A DNA stretch of 40,178 bases from Cystobasidiomycetes sp. EMM_F5 (Eukaryota). A program made the translations under genes and the position numbers. The notes under the pieces are model-generated. The model was not told the origin of the DNA, searched no databases, and was given only the letters and a program-made list of their open reading frames with translations. The stretch covers positions 1 to 40,178 of the forward strand of contig JBPGPT010000062.1 of the NCBI GenBank assembly GCA_051047955.1. The letters run 5' to 3'. Below, in pieces: positions 8,957 to 20,238 of this stretch; the first letter of the stretch is position 1; each line of letters starts with the position of its first letter.

Positions 8957-10707
8957 CTACACCGACTCGCTCACTTTTGGCGAGTCACTGGGAGCCATAC
9001 TTTCAATCTCCACCTTCACCTCGTCTTGAACCCCGCTTTCGACGACATCGACGACATCTGTCCGCCGGTCTTGGCCCATTCCCTTCAGGCGACCCTTGCC
9101 CCGCTGTTGGTGCACCTCGTCCCAACTCTTCTGCGCTTGCGAGAGGCATTCCAAATCCGACCGATACGCTGCTTCAAATCTGTCCGCTTCCGCATCGAGG
9201 GTGCCTTCCTGGATACATCGACGTATCGCCTTCATGAAGGCAGCCATCACGCAGGTGTTGTGCATGGCCAGGAGGACGTGCGCAGTCATCTCGTGCGTGT
9301 GCAGCAGATGGTGGACATATGCGCGAGTAGGGGCGTCGCCTAATGCTTCTTCCCCAAACAACGACGTTAGATGCGCGTGCTCTGCACTCGTTGCGAGCGG
9401 CGAGAAGTCGGTTGCATGCTGATCATCAAACAGGTTGATTGCCCAGTCCACTTGCGGCACATCGGAGGAAGCCAGCACCGGAAAGCTGAATGAGAGTCCG
9501 ATACCCAGAGTCGACAAGTACGCAGTGTATTGATCCATGAAAAGATCGCATCCGGTCTGTCGAACTAGCCGCAGAACCTCGTGCGGTCCTCTTGGACAGA
9601 ACAGCAGACGAGGTTTGTTGCTTGGAACGCTGTTGACCGAGACGTTGATACAAGCAATGGCATCATCGTCTCCCCTGAATCTAGTAGCCATATCTTCCGG
9701 ATCGCGAAGCGTGGTGAGGTTGATGCTATAGCCAGCCAGCATATCGACTGGACGACGACCGCCCAAGTCTCCTGACGGCAAGTGTAGCGACTTCATGTAT
9801 TCACTACGTGCAGCCAGTGATAGACCTCCTACCAGGGGAGCAAAGAGGCAGGTCCCGGACTGAACATGGTCGTTCCTAGTTAGTCACTACTGGTATCTTT
9901 CAACCACAGATCACGTCCCCACCTTTTCGGCAGCTTGCACGGTTTTGACGAGCATCTTTTCGGAGCGGATCAAGCTTTTCGTCAGGCGTTTTTGGCTTCT
10001 GGTGAGGACAGTGGGATCATCGGCAAGACTAATCATGATATCCGGTGCCCGCAAAAGGGCAATAGTGTTAAAGTGTTCGAGTGTCATCTGGGGTAGGTGT
10101 TGAGCATCGGAGAACAACTGTGATTGTGCAACCCACTTTTATGACACCGCGGAAACCACGGCAGGCGACGTAGAGGTCCGTATTGGCAATTATCGGGAGG
10201 GTATCAGAAGGATCCCGTAGGCCAGCGAATAGCAAATGCGCGCTTTCTCCGTTATGACTTTGTTTTGAGCATCTTAGCCCGAGATACCGTGCTAGCGAGT
10301 AAGGTGCCTCGGTGTATGCCGGAGGATTGTAGTCGAGGCTGCGAGCGATAAAGCTCAGTCATGGACCACCCAGCTGTATGAGTGTGCTGCGAAATTCTGC
10401 AGGGCGTTTATCAAACTCACAAATGCTCAATTGCCATGTAGGCCATCTCTACAGGCAGACGACCGAGATTGTCTGGCGTCAGATGGACCGGGGCACCTTT
10501 GCGGGTGTACGCAATGATAGCGGGCGTCTCTAGCTCGACGGGCTGCGCTACACTGCCGTCTTCATGCGCGGGATGGGTAAATGATAGTTTCCCAGACCGA
10601 GCCGGCGATGACCGCGACTGGCTCGTCAGTGAAAATACGAGTGGAGAACGTGGAGAATGTGATTGCGAGTGAGCGGCTGCTGCGCCGTCGTTAGTTTGGC
10701 TATCCAT
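8957..10707 (-). CDS. QTRT2: Queuine tRNA-ribosyltransferase accessory subunit (TGT fold); about 4 exons
   Basis: ARSGKL...ETPAIIAYTRKGAPVHLTPDNL; LRAPDIMISLAD...KRLTKSLIRS; KPRLL...GPHEVLRLV..GCDLF; TRAYVHHLLHTHEMTAHVLLAMHN. It lacks the catalytic-subunit DSGGFQ motif. An alternative in-frame ATG lies at 10734. Confidence 0.85.
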
Positions 10708-11038
10708 GTTATATCTTGCAGACGACTGGGCCATTTGCGACCGAAATTGCTGCCAACGCCAGAGCGGACTGCGGAGACTCGCAGGCCGCAGACGACGAAG
10801 CAGTTCAGAGCGAATCGTCTCGATGACGGGCAAGGGCAATATCCTGAAAGCCGGGTCAGCGAACGGTATGCGATGCGGAGAGCGCCCAGTCGTGCGCCCT
10901 GGCACGGTGGTCTAGTCTTTGTCAAGCGAGCAATGCACAGTGACAACAGCGAGAGGTGCATCGTTAAGCGTATTCTAAATCGTACATCGGCTGCCATCGC
11001 TCGAGCCCACAACGTGCCATCGCACAGCCGACGTGCTG

Positions 11039-14000
11039 TCAAGATGCATACGGTATCTTGTTTTGCATGTACTGTGAAAGGACAGCGAGATATCGCATAA
11101 GTCAAAATGCAACGGACGTAACGCCTCATACGCGGCACTCTTGCGTACCTGGAAGCGGTCGTAAATTATGCTCATCGAATTCTCCGCGGCATTGTCGATA
11201 ACCCCCATCATATACCTGGCAGCTTCGCGTTGTGACAAGTCGGGACGGAACCTGTCGCGTAGGCGGTGCATCGTGCCCTCGCCCTTGAATGACGGCAGAT
11301 CTGTTGCCATCATCAATTGACAGGTAGCGACAATATCTTCAACATATGCTCGGCACGACAAGAAGGCCTTCACGGTGAGCTCGCAAAACTGTCGATAGCC
11401 TTGGCTGTCGCGTCCGCCCATCAGTGTTATCATTTCGTGCGTGAGCTTAAAGGAATTGGGCTCGAATTTGATACCCTGTACGAAGATGTACGAGACTCTG
11501 CGTCAGCGGTCCCCTGTGTCAAATTTATGTGCTAATAGTGGATACTTACTCCGGGACGTGCAGAGGCACAACGGGTGGCGAAGCGTTAGCAACTTATGGA
11601 AACCGCAGAGACAAACCATGACTCATCTATGTCAAAGAGGAAACCGAAATCTGCGAAAACAGCGTGAGGTCAGCCTCTCCTGATGTCACAGCCTGTGGCC
11701 GAACCGACGACAGCTGTTCAGTCGGCATTACTCACCGATGTGCGTTATTCTGCCTTCGCCGTCAATCATGATATTTCCGTTGTGGCGATCTTTGATCTGT
11801 AAGATATAGCATAGCACACTGTAGGCCGCCATACTCTGTATGAAATTCCTTCGTGCGCGTTGGAACTTGACCGAATCCGCGGGACCATACTGAAACAAGA
11901 AAAATGAGAGTAGATCGTTTATTTTCGCTCGCCCCATTTCATCGCGCGAAGTAGCGTTCGGTACGACGTCAATAATACCGGTCTGTGGATCGTTGTCAGC
12001 TAGGATCGAAGACTGTTGCTGTTTGTATTCGTAATGCTTACTCCCGGACCAGTCGCCAGCACTTTGTATGGTTGCACCTGTAAGTCAAGTCCTAGCACGT
12101 TGAACATATTCTTAAATTGCGCAATGACTTGAAGGGCGAGCACATCCTGTCGACAATCGTCTCCCACTTTAAAAATGGCTGCCAGTTTGGACCTTTGCAT
12201 CTCGTTGCCTTTGCGGGAAACCTCACCGCCCTGAAGAGACGGCAGCTCCTCACGCTCAGTGCCCGCATCTGCTGCTTGCTCCCCACCAGTTTCCTTTATG
12301 GCCTGTTCAGAGTAGTCGCTTGGTGCCTCTCGCTCAACGTAAAATGTAGCCATGAATGGTGTTTTTGCGTGCGACTGGAGTGGTCTACCAGAATGACGAT
12401 CGATATCGACCACCGTGCCTTCCGGGTGACTTGGTAGATATACCCCCTTTTCGACATTGATCTTCTGCATCTCCTCGTCTATTTTAGCCTTCTTCTCGGC
12501 CTTCTCCTTCTTGACCAAAGGCATTAGTTTCCTAGAGATGGACGTCACTTCGTTGAAGAAGCCAAACTCCTTTTCATAGAACACTTTGGCTTCTCCCGAC
12601 AAGGAGCTGACAATGAGATCTGTCATACGTTCAAAGGTCTCCTTCTCGGGATCAGCCTAGGACACAGTCGATCATTCGTCAGCAAGGACTCTTTGTCACG
12701 CACAAGCCCTGTCACGTACGATTGTTGCTAAATCATCCTTGAAGCAGTTCGCCTTCATATTCCAAATCATCTGATGGCAGAATAGCTGCGATATCTTGGA
12801 GGTTTCAAAGATGAACCTTTCCATGTAGTCTGTGCTACGCTTCAGCGTGTGATATTTCGTGAAGAAGAAGCCTGAGCGTACGAAGGGGGTCCGTGCGCAA
12901 CGCCTGCACTACTTGCGGCGTATAGAAGAAGACCAAGTCAACAGAGTGCTGCTCCAAGCTTCGCATTGCACACTGTAGTGCAAGTGGCTCTCGATTGTAT
13001 GATGGTAGGAATAGCTTGAGAATCTGAATCGGAGACTCCGGTGCCCAGTAAATCAGGTGCTGACGCCATGGAAAGTTGCCATTCAGTTCTGCTTTTCATG
13101 CTGTCGATAGCAAGTCGCTCACTTTGAGCCTGCTACCGGCAGCTGCTGAAGATGCGCAAGCTGATAAGAATATGTTCAAAGCCTCTGCTACTTTGTACGA
13201 TTGTGATGGATGGTCGAAAACGTATCGTTTGACTTCGTCAGCCACACTGCTCAATTTGAAGCGATCCGCCATGAATACGGCGAGCCTTGGACTCCAACCC
13301 CATGCCACCCCAACAAGTTCCGACCAAGTCGCCTGCAAGGAGTGTATCAGCCGACATAGTCGTGTTTGACTTTGCAAGGTAACACACAGACGACAAACTC
13401 CGCAACAGCTCAGCTGGTGCGTCAGGACCCTTCTTGCTGTCCTCCATGGGATTCATCCATATCGAAATACGCTGCAGTTCGTCCTCAAGGTGTGCCAGCA
13501 ATAATTGCTGCGACAGGCGCAACCTCCGTTTTGTCGGGTCTGTGAAGCTAGTTTAGATGATCTCCCTGTGTTTGACGCTGTCGCCCTTACCATTCTCAGA
13601 GCGTAGTTGTCGTCTGTGCAAGCTTACATCCAGAGTCGACTGCCGGTCGTCAGCCTTCACAGCTTGAATGAGAAGCTGGATGGACTTTGCATCTTCGCTC
13701 AACTGAACCCGATCGGAGCCGTATGACCACCTGCGCGAACCTTATCGTAAACCTCGATATCACTACAAGCCAGTCGTACAATTCACTTACATCGGCCGCT
13801 GTTCGAACCAATCAAATGCGGCAGCGTATAACCTTTTCTGCAGAGTCTTGAAAAGCGATGCCTCCAAATTAGTGTTGTGGAGTATTCCGAACCCGAAAGC
13901 AAGTAATTTCATGCGCAGCTCGCGGCAAAGGGGGTGTTTTCTAAGGGCCCATCAAGTCAGTATACACGCCTGCTAAAAACGCACGAAGGATGGCCTTACC

Positions 14001-17000
14001 CCCACATCTGGCATCGATGATAGGTCCGTAGAACCATCCTCATGCAGCCCAAAACAAGGTATTTTTTGCGATACCTAAAGGCCTGAAAGCGGCTTGTAAG
14101 GAACTCCAGCAGGTATCGTTGCGGAAGCAGAATGGATTGGACGGTACGCGAGGCTTTTGCAATCGCAGCGATGTCAGTCGGAGAATACTCCGTCTTGCTC
14201 TGGATCGGATCCTCGGCTCTGTGCGGACGGTGTCAGGACGTGGTAGCTGGCTTACGACGAACTGCCCACCTACTTCAGAAGTACAGAGAACAGGCCTCGC
14301 CGACGCCTGACCGTCCAGCCCCAGGCGAGATACAAGTCGCACATAAGCTTGTCTTCTACTTCGGCACGCTTGTCGACTAGCCATGCCCACACTTCCACGC
14401 CAAGATGCATAGCGGGCGGATTGATGGCATGGACTGGTAAAAACACAATTTCGCGCACTAGGTCATAGTTGATTTCCTTCTGAGCAATTATGACAGCAGC
14501 CGTCCTGTACAGCAGCGTTCGCATGTCGTCCAGAGAAAGACGAGTGGCCCGCGTACGGAGGCTCTTTGACACATTTCGTAAATTTGCTTTCAGAGACTTG
14601 ATATGCTGCGCATCAGCTGATATGTTGCCAGTGGCGGACATTTCAATGACTGTTGCTGCCTCAGAGCCAAAAGTGTGTCTTGTGCCGAAGGCGCTAGCGA
14701 AGAGACTTGCGGTATCGGCCTTCCATCCACCATAATTTGCGAAAGTAGCTACGGGGGCAAGCGAAAGAGGAGATAAATGACATGACTACGAATAGAGAAT
14801 CTTTCATCGCACCTTCCTTCGCGCTTCTGGGCATCGTTTTGGCTATTTCCAAAGCCACGCTCTTTCCCATACCCGAGCCAGCACTCAGTTCCATGGCCGG
14901 TTCATCATCGAGGTAGTTCTGCAGGAGGCCAGCCATTTCGAGCGGAGACGCGCTGAGAGCAGCTAATAGCCAGACTCTGCTGTTCTGATATACCTGCGTC
15001 AATATTTCATTGCGTATAGCGTAGTTGTCCGGCAGAGTCAAGGATATCCCGCAGCGTTTCGAAGTGAACTCGATACTGGGCGAATACTCATTGCCGCACT
15101 CATCCTCACACGCGTCACGTAACAGGGTAAGCAGCTCCAACAGACCGGTCACCAGCACCGCGTCACACAGCAGTACAGGAAAAGCAGTAAAGATGTCGTT
15201 TAGCACGCGGATTGCTATAGAACGAGCGTTTCCTGAGCGATGAGCGCATCCTACGATCACAGCTTTGATGCGTTGTGACAAATTCACATCTGCGCGCTGG
15301 TTTCGCACTCGATCACCGTGATTCACTAGGAATGCGGTGGTTGCTTTATCTGCGATTTCCCGCAAGGGTTCCGCCAGAGGCCCTGAGTTTACGCTATCGT
15401 TATCGAAGTAGCCAAGCATCTCGGATGGATCACCCGCTGCTGCTCGGAAGGCTTCGAGCCGGCCGATCGTGAGTAGCAGGACCACTTGCGGATAGGTCAA
15501 GATGCGCGACTGCAAAACCCCCTGCTTCGGTATAAAAGTAGCAAGGTCGCGACGAAGACCGTCCGCCGACTGCAGAAAGTTCGGTCAGAGATGCTCTGCA
15601 ATGTGAACTCGAAAGACAAGCTGAATAGGACCAACCTGCCCCGACTCGCGTCTTAGAACGGGATCATACTCCAGCTCGGACGATAGGTATTTATTGCTAG
15701 TTCCGCGCAATAGACAAGGTGTTTTTGTTGCTAGTCGCTCTAGATGTTTGTAGTGTCTTGCTGTCTCTCGCCGGTTTGGGGTTGCAAGGTCCAAGACGAT
15801 GGCAGTAAACCAAACGTTGCGGAGCAGCGACATGAGATCCGACTCCAAGTTATGCATGTAGTCTACAGCGTGGTGCGCAGTCATCAGTGCATCGATTGCG
15901 GATAAGGTATCTGCTAATTTAGAGAGTAGAAGAGTTTGGTCGATTGTCGATCGCGAGCTCTGTCTTCCATAGTATGAGCTTTGTTCAAGAAACAAAGCGC
16001 ATAAATGCCGTAACAGAATGAACGCGTATCCTTTGATATGGGCGACGCTTCGAGCCAAGTGCAGCATGGCGTCTGAGATCTGCAAAAGGTTGCACGCCCC
16101 ACTAAGTCAACAGAAGTAGTCCTTTATTGATTAAATACGTACGGAGTTGCCGAGCCGCTCGTCATTTGCCAGATTGCCGGTTTTGGTGACGTCGCACAAC
16201 ACCCTGACGATATCAATGTAGTCGTCTTGCGTTGCGAAAGTTGCCAAGTCCCCACAGCATGATAGCGCCGCGCTTTCGATGGCAGGATCTGTTGATGTAC
16301 GGATACGCTGCAATACCATAGAGAGGGCTAGCTTGATCACATCCGGGCTCTTGTTCTTCACGGCCAAACGCGTCACTGCAAACAGAGCTTGCAGTGTGAT
16401 CTGGGTCTTCTCCTCTAGCGTGAGTTTTGCTGACATGTTGTGAGTGCGCACAGACGCATACGAGTCGTCCGGCCCGTTACCCAATGCGACAGACCTCAGA
16501 CTGCCAGTGGTCGATTGCTCCCCTCTAGTAGAGGGAATGCAACTGAGAAGTGAGTACACAACAGAGAGAGTAACATCGTGTTGACCGATGCGGTCAAGGG
16601 CACTTGCCAATACATCGCTTGCAAGCTGTAGCGTCTGCGATGGTGCAACGCCCGTTGGACTCACCAGTTCTAGCGAAGGACTGGTGAGAAACCTCCGCAC
16701 TGCAGGAACAGCCATAGGCGCCAATGAAGGAAAAGCGTGGAGGAGCGCAGACCAACAGGTCAAAGTTGCGCGCGTCAATACGTTGTCTTGGGTAGGAGGA
16801 TCGGCGAGAAACTCTGACAGCAACGACGCAGGTGCAGCATTCGCGTTGTGCTCGCCTACACTGACAGCGATTAATGCCATCTGTGAATGAAAGGAAGATA
16901 AGTGTGCGTGTGCGTACGAGGCTGCTCTGAATGGTGCTGCTCACCATGCTATTGATGAGGATTTGCACTTCGTAAGGGTCAAGAGAAGATGTGCCGAGAT

Positions 17001-18367
17001 CCTGATCAGTCTCGGCTTCGATTTGTGATGATGCAAAGCGTATCGTGTTCGTGGACGCATCCTCGATGGATTGGCTGATCGCACGTGGCACGTTATGTGA
17101 CTTTATCGTATCGACATTGCCGCCAACAAGCGCAGTCCATCCTTCCTCTGCCGTGCTGATGCGACCGACAGCCAAAGACACAGCGATACTGCGAAGAATG
17201 CGGCCATCGACGAAAGTCGCCATTCTGGGCGTAAACGGCATGAACAGTGAATCATATCGTGCCAGAACTCCGAAGATGATTCTGCCATCGGAGGACGAGT
17301 GCGCACTTGAGCCGCGTAGCACGCTCTCAACATTGGCTGCCGCCGTCGACGATAGTGGTTCAAGGCGCTCTAGAACGGACGATGCCAAGGAGGCATGCCA
17401 GAGTGTTGCACAGTCCGCAAATGCGCGCCCAATGCCATTGATGGCAGGCAGAATATGTGTAATAATCCTGAATCCTGCAATCATCCAGATGTCAGTGACT
17501 GGATTGGTGAACAGATGAGATGGAATGGTCGATACCATCGCTGTGAGCCAGATCTTCCTTGAGCATGCTGTATGTATCCATCAGGATATCAAGAGCGGCC
17601 GGCTGCATTGTGTAATTTGCCAAACGTATGGCCGCGTTTGCCAGTGCGAACGCTAGCTGATCTGCGCAGAGCCATCGGTGTGTCGTGCCTGTGGAGTAGG
17701 GATTCGTGTTATCTCGCACGTCGTGTGTGTGCCATGTGATCACTCACCGTTGACTCCGAAAGACTTCAGGCATGTCAGCGTGGGAAGCCGGCGGAGAATG
17801 GCCAGGACGGCAGTCACGGCGCTTTCGTCGAGGACCGGGGCCGTAACACTCGACGATTGACTCTCATTGACGAGCTCATCAGAGCCATGAGCCTCGAAAG
17901 ACTCGGATGCAAAGCCATATTTCGAGCTCGGAACGGCGAGCGCTCCGACGTACTCTGCCAGAGCTACTGCCGCGTTGGTGCCCTGAAAGGCGTAGTCTGT
18001 GTCCGAGTAAACGGTATCCTGCGACAAGCCAAAGGCAGCCAGGATATCCCCGCCTTTGCCGTTTGTCGCAGAATGGCCATTTCTCGCTCGATTCAGCCCG
18101 TTCGAGCGAGAGTCAGTACGTATTCCATCGTCAGTACCATTCCGGATATCTTGCTCGTCGCCGTCGCCGTCCTCGTCGTCGTTCCAGCGAGTCTTCCCGT
18201 CGCGTTTCCGCTGCTGCTCTCTGGCAAAGGATACCCCCAGGCTCGACAATATGCTCTGGTGGAGGTTGAAGTCGAGACTGCGGGAAGCGAGCACGGCGGT
18301 TCATTAGCTGAACACCGTCCGGAAGAGTCCTACGAGTCGCTTTTGGAGACACGCCTTACCTGTCCAT
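11039..18367 (-). CDS. STT4: Phosphatidylinositol 4-kinase type III alpha; many exons
   Basis: Start MDS/LDFNLHQSIL (ATG 18367); long helical solenoid; FYTPQVVQALR, QLFCHQMIWNMKAN; kinase motifs GRPLQSHAKTPF, FKVGDDCRQD, QIKDRHNGNIMID..HI/DFGFL; C-terminus YDRFQ/YMQNKIPY. The exact last codons are uncertain. Confidence 0.95.
11558..11626 (-). other. Predicted non-canonical AT-AC spliceosomal intron (69 nt) in STT4, followed by 8-nt micro-exon 11550-11557
   Basis: Minus strand reads ...GAC ATA G|ATGAGT...GCTAAC...CTCTGCAC|GTCCCGGA|GTAAGT. Of the splices I tried, only this one restores the expected DFGFLFDIGPGGIKFEPNSFKL. Confidence 0.75.
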
Positions 18368-18566
18368 GTTGGTTTGGGTTGGCAGGACGTCAACAGGCAA
18401 AACGGCAATCAAGCAGTCAAATATCAAAAGACCGCGACTTGCAGTCGTTTATCCTTCTACAACTACTCGCACAACATCATACGCACTGCTAGGAGGCCCT
18501 CGTTTGTTATTTGCAGTCCGCTCCTGCCCAATCTCCACCAAACATGCTCGACGCCGTCGCCCGCTG

Positions 18567-20238
18567 TCAATTCTCTGACTCCCAAGGGCTCCTCACATAC
18601 TCGACGTCCGAGTCACTGTCATCGTCTCTGTGGCCAGATCGGTCTACCGCAGACCCAGTCCGCGCGTCTGACCCTGCCGTCCTAGCGGCAGAGGGGGTAC
18701 CGGCAGTCGCTGCTCTCGTCGCAGATGCTGCACCGGGACTACCATACGTCCCACTCGAGGGTGAGCCTGTCGTGCTCGGATTGTCCAGCAGCGATATCGT
18801 CTGACGAGGTAGCATCTGCACTTTGGCAGGTGAGCCGCTCATGCCTGATCCAACCCGTCGACCAGACGGCGAAGAGGCGTATAGTCCGGCTGAGGCTGCA
18901 ATACCTGGCGTCGGAGAAGTTGATAGGCTGTAAGGAGCTGCACTTGACGTGTGGCTTGTAGGCATCGGCTGGGCGGGCGTAGCGATTCCTGTCGGTAAAG
19001 GCTTGTTGTAGTCTGTATTTGTAGTACAGTCGCTAAGCTCGCGGCGCTGAGCTGTCTTTGCTGCCTAAATCAAAATTTACATACCTGTCTTGGCTGATGG
19101 AGACACGCTATAGTCGCGCATAGTGCTCTGGCTGGCAAAAGGACTCTCCGATCTCAGCTCGTCTCTTTGTGGATTTGGCTTGGCAAAGCGAGCTTTCAGA
19201 TCATTGATGTTGAAGTTTTGAATGTTGTTCTTGACGTCTTCCAGCTTGATCCCACCTTGCCAAGGTGCAGGAATGCTGATGCCGCCAATCGTCGCTTGCG
19301 TACGAGATTGGTTGGGCCTCTCTGCGTACGCACCTCCTTCCGCCCGCTCATTGTCGTGCTGCATTTGCGCCTGCTGAGCTCTCTGTTGCTGCACTTGGGC
19401 GTACTTGTCCTTGGCTTTGCCCAACCATTCGTTGAACGTCTTTTTGCCGGCTAGCGGAGGGTTTTTCAGCTGAAAGGTGCTCAGAGCACGACACAGTCAT
19501 GATCCTTACTGTCTGCTAGCTTGCCAAACTGTTCGCTGAGCTGATCGAGCTCATCTTGGCCTTTGTATCTCCCACTCTCGGTTGATGAATCTGTTTGCGC
19601 TGGCAGCTGAGCAGTCGTAGACGAACGTCCGTCGCGAGGTCGATAGTTGAGATTCTCTGGCTGCCACTGATGGTCACCTTGTGCAGCTGAGGGCGCGGTC
19701 CCCAGTGGCCGACCGTACGCTGCTTGATGCTCTCGCTCCATTTGCTCCATGAGTTCGCGAGCGTACGCCTCGTCCGCAGCCATCTGAGCATTCCTCGCAA
19801 CAGCCGCAGCGTCGCCGTTGTTGTGACGGGGACTTGCATTGTTTGCGGGGATTGCTGCGACCGTAGGTTCCGTCGACGACAGCTCGAGGAGGGCCATTGA
19901 CGCGGCGTCTGGGTTTCCACCGTGGGCCGCGAGGACTTCAGCGATGACTGAGGAGTGTTAGTAGTATTCAACGACGCCGTTTCAGCTTGAAAGCTGGTTA
20001 ATTCAGAACATCAAAGTCAGGACTTGCTCTGCCTGTCCATGCCAGGAAACGCGGCTTCGAGCGCTGCAACGGTATCGTGAGTCTGATTTGGAGGGCTGGA
20101 CGGTCTCGTATGTTGCTGTTGTGGTGCTGAAACGGCACTTTGCTGTTCAGATATCGCTGGAGCTGGCGTTGGCGCTGGCTCGACATGGCCAGCCAGCCTC
20201 GTCTCATCGTTGGCATCCGCAGCTTCAGACTCTGCCAT
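18567..20238 (-). CDS. CUE-domain ubiquitin-binding protein (Cue5/Don1-like); 4 exons
   Basis: Spliced VAALEAAFPGMDRQ/IIAEVLAAHGGNPDAASMALLELS forms a CUE domain (FP ... LL). It is followed by QMAADEAYARELM and a C-terminal acidic DDSDSDVEYVRSPW motif. Requires a GC-AG first intron (19948-20027). Confidence 0.8.

Follow-up and report, generated by a model that had tools for sequence, protein, structure and literature searches.

Introduction

Type II AT-AC introns have AT and AC at their ends, a 5' splice site that follows the U2 consensus except at +1, and no U12 boxes. The passages of the survey by Sheth et al. (2006; PMC1557818) that deal with this class count 15 U2-type AT-AC introns in human, six in mouse and three in fly, and list no example from worm or Arabidopsis. 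They report that the AT-AC introns of SCN4A and SCN5A were shown experimentally to be U2-dependent, include TAF2 in the survey, and mention the hypothesis that xylanase genes of filamentous fungi contain AT-AC II introns. Here we describe an intron of this class in the gene of a lipid kinase, PI4KIII-alpha (STT4). The gene lies on a stretch of 40,178 nucleotides from Cystobasidiomycetes sp. EMM_F5 (contig JBPGPT010000062.1, positions 1 to 40,178), which is called the window below, and the intron occupies positions 11626-11558 of its minus strand. It is very probably a genuine AT-AC spliceosomal intron, old, removed by the major (U2-dependent) spliceosome, and kept by a two-mutation barrier.

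The STT4 intron resembles the animal type II introns of SCN4A, SCN5A and TAF2 in its AT-AC ends, in its otherwise good U2-type 5' site and in the extreme rarity of its kind. The ends of the animal introns have also been conserved for a long time, from human to pufferfish and from human to fly according to the same parts of the survey (PMC1557818). Unlike them, the STT4 intron is fungal, from a group that lacks the minor spliceosome; it is short (55-71 nt in relatives), and its host gene encodes a lipid kinase. It adjoins an 8-nt exon, it is common to several basidiomycete subphyla, and its U2 dependence is presumptive.

The suppressor mutants of yeast and human pre-mRNAs provide a second precedent. 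As summarized in the survey (PMC1557818), a G1-to-A change is rescued by a change of the last G to C, with lower efficiency. These mutants and the STT4 intron have in common an A at +1 and a C at the last position of a normal U2-type intron, and likely the mechanism of the second splicing step. However, the mutants are laboratory constructs with reduced efficiency, whereas the STT4 intron is natural and maintained, and has near-perfect positions +3 to +6 and a fixed A-G at -2/-1.

AT-AC introns have been recorded in Dikarya at very low frequency. In the sections of the respective papers that concern splice sites, they make up 0.03% in SnowyOwl fungal models (PMC4084796), are described as rare in fungi (PMC7072748), are found among the splice-site subtypes of Coprinopsis (PMC12230235), and are tallied at very low frequency or listed as an accepted type in fungal annotation (PMC5389616). 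We found no description of the STT4 intron, its conservation or its micro-exon in open-access papers and preprints. Judged from its sequence, it is a well-conserved case of an established rare class, the U2-type AT-AC introns.

An AT-AC intron and an 8-nt exon in the activation loop

The 5' site of the intron, AG/ATGAGT (ATGAGT at 11626-11621), is a near-perfect target of U1 and U6, save for the A in place of G at +1. The candidate branch site GCTAAC (11590-11585) is located 28 nt from the 3' end, the 27 bases that follow it contain no AG, and the intron ends in TGCAC (CAC at 11560-11558). The other introns of the window's STT4 have GTRAGY, GCTGAC and YAG signals with similar lengths and spacing. 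When the 24-nt exon, the 8-nt exon and the downstream exon were joined in a script, an open frame with DFGFLFDIGPGGIKFEPNSFKL was obtained, as in the related proteins P0001, P0003, P0004 and P0005. The six spliced 3' exons form an open frame that ends in YMQNKIPYAS and a stop codon, the usual C-terminus of the family. A preliminary description of this DNA, made from the letters of the window, had given the coordinates and motifs of the stretch 11650-11476, and all of them are correct to the base. It had proposed a natural U2-type AT-AC intron followed by a micro-exon, which is now supported by comparative evidence and by one pair of cDNA-like and genomic sequences from a relative.

Orthologous loci were collected by scanning metagenomes with an alignment of the C-terminal exon. 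The scan matched 264 stretches, of which 169 were confirmed; the best 80 (L001-L080) and the window constitute the 81 sequences considered here, 77 parsed by script and four by eye. The AT-AC intron, the 8-nt exon and the downstream GT-AG intron are all present in 46 of the 81 (including the window, L022 and L077). Twelve sequences have the AT-AC intron alone, another 12 have the downstream GT-AG intron alone (including L080, in which the intron is shifted by one base), and ten have no intron at the site. The remaining sequence, L028, is a partial contig that begins inside the first intron.

After removal of identical copies, 45 distinct complete introns were available at the first site, 43 scored by script and two (L022 and L077) by eye, and the ends are AT...AC in all 45, a recurrence far beyond what chance would give. 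A GT-AG intron was not found at this site in any of the 81 sequences, and the neighboring downstream intron is GT...AG in 42/42 distinct sequences. The interiors of the 43 scripted AT-AC introns have diverged: the median pairwise identity is 0.58, 68% of the pairs fall below 0.6, and 25 clusters are formed at 70% identity or more. Positions +1, +2, +5, -2 and -1 are invariant (2 bits), and interior positions carry approximately 0.1-0.5 bits. The 8-mer between the two introns reads G.CC.GG. in 59/59 distinct segments and varies only at its positions 2, 5 and 8, which are third codon positions. This pattern marks it as a coding exon rather than intron sequence. As an internal coding exon of 8 nt between two introns it is a micro-exon, the inclusion of which in the mRNA of the window's organism is probable from these comparisons. 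The preliminary description had suggested an alignment of orthologous introns, which thus returned AT-AC in every case and never GT-AG. It had also treated the intron as a peculiarity of one gene copy; this view has to be given up, because the intron is an old and widely shared feature of basidiomycete STT4.

In L080 (1254-1380), the shifted downstream intron is in phase 1 and interrupts the second Gly codon of PGG, and Met replaces the Ile or Val ahead of KFEP. Intron sliding may explain the shift.

The donor looks as though it compensates for its weak first base. Among the 43 scripted introns the 5' hexamer is ATAAGT in 26 and ATGAGT in 12, with five single variants, and the two main forms account for 40 of all 45. 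Position +5 is G in 100% of the AT-AC introns, +6 is T in 98% and +4 is A in 95%, compared with only 69% A at +4 and 62% T at +6 in the GT-AG neighbor. The preceding exon ends in A-G in 45/45 sequences with the AT-AC intron. The Ile codon at this end is ATA in 43/43 sequences with the intron; in those without it, ATT occurs seven times, ATC seven times and ATA twice, and the two ATA cases are the cDNA-like L045 and L048. A CTRAY box was found in 29 of the 43 introns, with a median distance of 21 nt to the 3' end.

In L022 and L077, approximately 150 nt upstream of the KFE match, the Ile of DFGFLFDI, invariant elsewhere, is replaced by Arg (AGA), and the A-G before the AT-AC donor is retained. 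The retention of A-G despite the Arg codon fits selection on the final bases of the exon for splicing.

Junctions in cDNA-like contigs

L048 matches L028 at 99.7% identity over 331 nt and at 100% over 66 nt. L048 was called cDNA-like because it lacks four introns that are present in L028 or in the related L041, including the two that flank a 10-nt exon. It reads GACATAGGTCCCGGGGGTGTC, in which GACATAG is joined to the 8-nt exon and then to the next exon. The genomic L028 has ...TCTCCAC, then GTCACGGG, then GTAAGA...CCGTAG, and then GGTGTC. Sliding the boundaries between the two sequences cannot give other dinucleotides. Thus, the pair indicates that in the mRNA form of a relative the AC acceptor is used and the 8-nt exon is included. 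At the donor, G followed by ATAAGT is found in L041 and L044, whose identity to L048 is 93% over 330 nt of exon.

Two further relatives show the site with fewer introns. L001, with 84% amino-acid identity to the window, is collinear with the window exons, and none of the five 3' introns is present in it. Its Ile is encoded by ATT, and by the codon usage described above its genome is probably without the AT-AC intron. P0002, a read-through open reading frame (ORF) from a relative with 86% identity, contains the downstream intron only.

The 10-nt exon of L028 and L048, CTTCAAAATG, is a second tiny exon near the 3' end of STT4 in this Agaricomycetes-like relative (L028:430-575 versus L048:1185-1215). 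It has a GT-AG intron on either side and is present in the cDNA-like L048; in the window, one 77-nt intron (11148-11072) takes the place of this arrangement.

Several points weigh against the proposed splicing. The AT donor is not seen in the L048/L028 pair, since L028 begins within the intron, and AT is observed only in L041 and L044. The 8-nt exon of L028 (positions 44-51) is GTCACGGG, with a His codon, versus GTCCCGGG with Pro in L048; the two are one base apart, which may reflect allelic variation or a misread base close to the end of the contig. The label cDNA-like is based solely on the absence of several introns, and the splice junctions of the window itself are assigned by homology. 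An earlier CAC occurs 11 nt past the candidate branch A in the window's intron, which means that the choice of the 3' site is not simply that of the first YAC. The metagenome sequences share descent, and the 45 AT-AC introns do not amount to 45 independent trials. The absence of minor small nuclear RNAs (snRNAs) is taken from surveys that cover Basidiomycota. Finally, the class labels of the loci are best blastx matches at 52-91% identity, and both the labels and the tree described below are coarse.

Proposed mechanism and possible regulatory role

We propose the following scheme. U1 and U6 would recognize AG/AURAGU despite the A at +1, U2 would pair at the CTRAY box, and the first step would proceed. 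In the second step, by analogy with the suppressor mutants, a contact between the A at the first position and the C at the last would replace the usual non-Watson-Crick contact between G(+1) and the last G. Removal of the AT-AC intron and of the next GT-AG intron would join the 24-nt, 8-nt and downstream exons and so produce the activation loop from DFG to GPGG. With its 8 nt, the exon has no room for complexes at its two ends simultaneously, and removal of the two introns is therefore likely to be successive. From these sequence comparisons we infer that splicing takes place in the window's organism, that it uses the U2 spliceosome, and that it is constitutive.

The STT4 kinase is essential in yeast. 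In Cryptococcus, one study reports that STT4 could not be deleted (PMC5052723). To turn AT-AC into GT-AG, two substitutions would have to occur simultaneously in a probably essential gene, and lineages would keep AT-AC or lose the intron cleanly. We propose that an intron with only one of the two changes (GT...AC or AT...AG) would be defective, and that for this reason the ends never switch and the intron is lost whole. The 81 sequences, in which AT-AC is kept or lost cleanly and never turned into GT-AG, would then illustrate an evolutionary or mutational 'trap'.

A U2-type intron may also be real and yet be kept for another reason, namely that its slow or regulated removal, or a forced order of splicing, tunes the output of STT4. 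We consider this improbable. The survey cited above, in its section on such substrates, describes AT-AC substrates of the major spliceosome as less efficiently spliced than GT-AG (PMC1557818); retention of the 69-nt intron would, on reading the window, bring in an in-frame TAA (within GCTAAC); and lineages that are evolutionarily far apart still have the intron. However, the two-mutation barrier explains the conserved ends equally well, and the intron is missing in 22 of the 81 sequences (ten intron-less and 12 with the downstream intron only), including the long genomic contigs L004-L007 and L011. The intron is thus dispensable, which argues mildly against a regulatory role.

The site combines the catalytic loop of a kinase, a deeply conserved intron and a phylum without a minor spliceosome. 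It would provide, in tractable fungi, a natural substrate on which the handling of A...C ends and of an 8-nt exon by the major spliceosome could be studied.

Canonical splice models and public annotation

The mRNA might instead use a weak GT-AG intron, for example from the donor GTCTCT at 11612 to the acceptor at 11476, with DESWF in place of GPG. Such a model is in frame, has canonical dinucleotides and resembles many public gene models of relatives. A scripted list of the in-frame GT/GC-AG models in the stretch contains 36 entries, seven with a single intron and 29 with two. All of them have poor donors, and GPGG was produced by none. The DFGFLFDIGPGG loop is obtained only by AT-AC splicing, versus these 36 models. 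The DESWF model had been set aside in the preliminary description; it is one of the 36 and loses GPGG. The PGG that it deletes is found in 86 of the 120 listed homologues and in most distant PI4KA representatives. The 8-mer, which would be intronic, is kept codon-like in 59/59 distinct segments, conservation is lacking in the stretch from which the additional residues would be translated, and the cDNA-like contigs L045 and L048 have the GPGG reading. A weak GT-AG intron is therefore very unlikely to be the one used.

The resemblance to public models can be traced to their errors. The protein set comprised 120 listed homologues, 84 of which have an NCBI or nr name (hand count). The canonical DFGFLFDIGPGG is present in 86 of the 120 and missing in 34, eight of which lack one of the two anchor motifs. 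Among the named STT4 models, 25 of 84 (approximately 30%, hand count) are aberrant exactly at the activation loop (P0025, P0037, P0041, P0046, P0049, P0051, P0053, P0054, P0057, P0059, P0064, P0073, P0076, P0081, P0085, P0088, P0094, P0104, P0107, P0108, P0112, P0113, P0116, P0118 and P0119). The errors are read-through of the AT-AC intron, skipping of the 24-nt exon, or invented residues. In 13/13 proteins that keep DFGFLFDI and lose GPG, the next residue is Asp, followed by K, E, N or M, which corresponds to G plus AT and then AAG or GAG. Six proteins have Arg immediately before PGG, which corresponds to the last intron base C plus GN. Models with such errors come from, among others, Cryptotrichosporon argae (Tremellomycetes), Tulasnella sp. 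(Cantharellales), Coprinopsis cinerea (the broken model P0053), Amanita thiersii, and species of Trametes, Fomitopsis, Termitomyces and Athelia.

Gene finders fail at the site because the intron is not GT-AG. That gene predictors would mis-annotate it had been predicted before any homologue was compared, and the named homologues without the canonical motif deviate precisely here. The correct public models already hold the splice implicitly. The systematic error in STT4 annotation could be corrected by a simple pipeline rule.

Major or minor spliceosome

The AT-AC ends and the phase-1 position are shared with many minor introns, and these are the features in favor of U12-dependent removal. The STT4 intron differs from U12-type AT-AC introns in that it has neither a ATATCCTT 5' site nor a TCCTTAAC branch site 10-20 nt from the 3' end; it has AT and AC ends, a U2 consensus 5' site except at +1, and no U12 boxes, as do type II introns. 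The U12 5' site [AG]TATCC, the absence of which from the window had been pointed out in the preliminary description, occurs in 0/43 scripted orthologous introns, which have ATRAGT at the 5' site. Just three of the 43 contain a CCTTRAY string, at 36-41 nt from the 3' end, too distant for a U12 branch site. The host phylum is also reported to be without the machinery: two pan-eukaryotic surveys describe minor introns and minor snRNAs as absent from Basidiomycota (PMC10639083, PMC11347168), in agreement with the earlier remark that Dikarya are generally reported to lack the minor spliceosome. A U12-dependent intron is hardly credible on this evidence.

No RNA run was among the matches listed for the window. 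Four sequencing runs, two at low share (0.14 and 0.09) and two added from the same study, were compared with the window, and no splice joints on it were found in them. A 151-nt contig of run X1 is identical to the window over 11587-11737, including the first bases of the AT-AC intron. The match gives no independent support, since X1 may be the window's own sample. A check of the reads at both intron ends had been proposed in the preliminary description; the X1 contig agrees at the first bases, and no record of the four runs spans position 11558. Record 9 of X2, from another species, contains the PGG-IKFE stretch without the downstream intron, stops at the base after the window's AC and is uninformative for the window. 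Four X3 reads represent a relative with an intron that ends in ...TAATAG ahead of the downstream exon. It is of negligible probability that the gene is a decaying pseudogene or that the ends of the intron result from faulty sequencing or assembly: the window comes from a single assembly and no read of the compared runs lies over 11558, but identical AT...AC ends occur in all 45 distinct orthologous introns on many contigs, the X1 contig is identical across the 5' end (possibly from the same sample), and the spliced frame is open through six exons to the usual C-terminus.

Age and origin of the intron

In a tree of the C-terminal 400 residues, the window groups with L001 and L002 (SH-aLRT 99). 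The group is sister to Atractiella (95) inside a Pucciniomycotina group (92). By best blastx match, the two-intron architecture occurs in most Agaricomycetes-like loci, in the Tremellomycetes-like L023 and L025, and in the Pucciniomycotina-like L008; the window is added by the tree. The basidiomycete ancestor probably already had the arrangement of AT-AC intron, 8-nt exon and GT-AG intron, and either or both introns were probably lost repeatedly.

The organism itself appears to belong to a Pucciniomycotina lineage without sequenced close kin. Near-identical public DNA was found only in phyllosphere metagenome runs, at low share.

A U2-type intron of this age could have begun as a U12-type AT-AC intron of the Dikarya ancestor, a fossil captured by the major spliceosome when the minor spliceosome was lost. 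The 5' site would have drifted to ATRAGT while the AT-AC ends stayed frozen by the two-mutation barrier. Phase 1 and the apparent presence of the intron in the basidiomycete ancestor are compatible with this origin, which we put forward tentatively and consider rather doubtful. PI4K terms were not found in the supplements of PMC2846911, which give no sign either way on a U12 origin, and the open-access full-text literature yielded no paper that joins PI4KA with 'minor intron'. Among 150 distant PI4KA representatives, the only aberrant model with the DFGFLFDI signature at this place is P0143, which is of the basidiomycete type. Other lineages have V, A, S or T at the Gly that is split in Basidiomycota, and protein models are silent on introns. 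If the U12 origin were true, the intron would mark how Dikarya disposed of minor introns, and it would be a natural, genetically testable substrate for the pairing of first and last nucleotides.

Gene identity and layout of the 3' region

The gene is PI4KIII-alpha/STT4, with a PI3/PI4-kinase catalytic domain. The best match of the downstream exon in the PDB is to human PI4KA structures, with an E-value of 3e-16. Three exons match PF00454, at profile positions 3-56, 99-166 and 187-240, and the absent positions 167-186 are the place of the 24-nt and 8-nt exons. A further exon scores 19.4 bits against PF19274 (PI4K_N), under the cut-off of 22.4. Full-length homologues carry the names STT4 or PI4K. 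The assignment to STT4, first made from the translated letters, is thus confirmed by the PI4KA structure, PF00454 and homologue matches. The features of the 3' region are listed in Table 1.

Table 1. Features of the STT4 3' region in the window, in the order of transcription.
Feature	Position	Strand	Remarks
Region of the STT4 gene	10975-19000	minus	intron-rich
Upstream GT-AG intron, 59 nt	11983..12041	minus	GTAAGC...GCTGAC...CACAG; missing from cDNA-like L001; shows the normal splice signals of the organism
Exon, catalytic-loop part of the kinase domain (...QIKDRHNGNIMIDGEGRITHI)	11736..11982	minus	PF00454 positions 99-166; collinear with L001; ends ...CACATCG at 11736, the final base being the first base of the DFG Asp codon
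Intron A, 85 nt, GT-AG	11651..11735	minus	GTGAGT...GCTGAC...CAG; missing from cDNA-like L001
24-nt exon, (D)FGFLFDI and first base of the Gly codon	11627..11650	minus	ends GACATAG; aligns to L001 1250-1272
AT-AC intron, 69 nt, phase 1	11558..11626	minus	AT-AC in 45/45 distinct orthologous introns
8-nt micro-exon GTCCCGGA	11550..11557	minus	completes Gly and encodes Pro-Gly of GPGG; codon-like variation; present in cDNA-like L048
Intron C, 74 nt, GT-AG, phase 0	11476..11549	minus	GTAAGT...GCTGAC...TACAG; GT-AG in 42/42 distinct orthologous introns
Exon, kinase C-lobe, GIKFEPNSFKL... to ...YDRFQ	11149..11475	minus	starts GGTATC at 11475; human PI4KA structures, E = 3e-16; PF00454 187-240
Last intron, 77 nt, GT-AG	11072..11148	minus	GTACGC...CACAG; missing from cDNA-like L001
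Last coding exon, YMQNKIPYAS and stop codon	11039..11071	minus	L001 ends with a matching C-terminus

The STT4 product of the window has no close named relative; the identity is 66-68% for the C-terminal exon and 35-38% for an N-terminal exon. A protein search with an N-terminal exon gave six matches at 27-38% identity, which did not help to place the organism. No Rfam family matched anywhere in the 40-kb window. A neighboring ORF of 308 amino acids is located at 8957-9883 on the minus strand.

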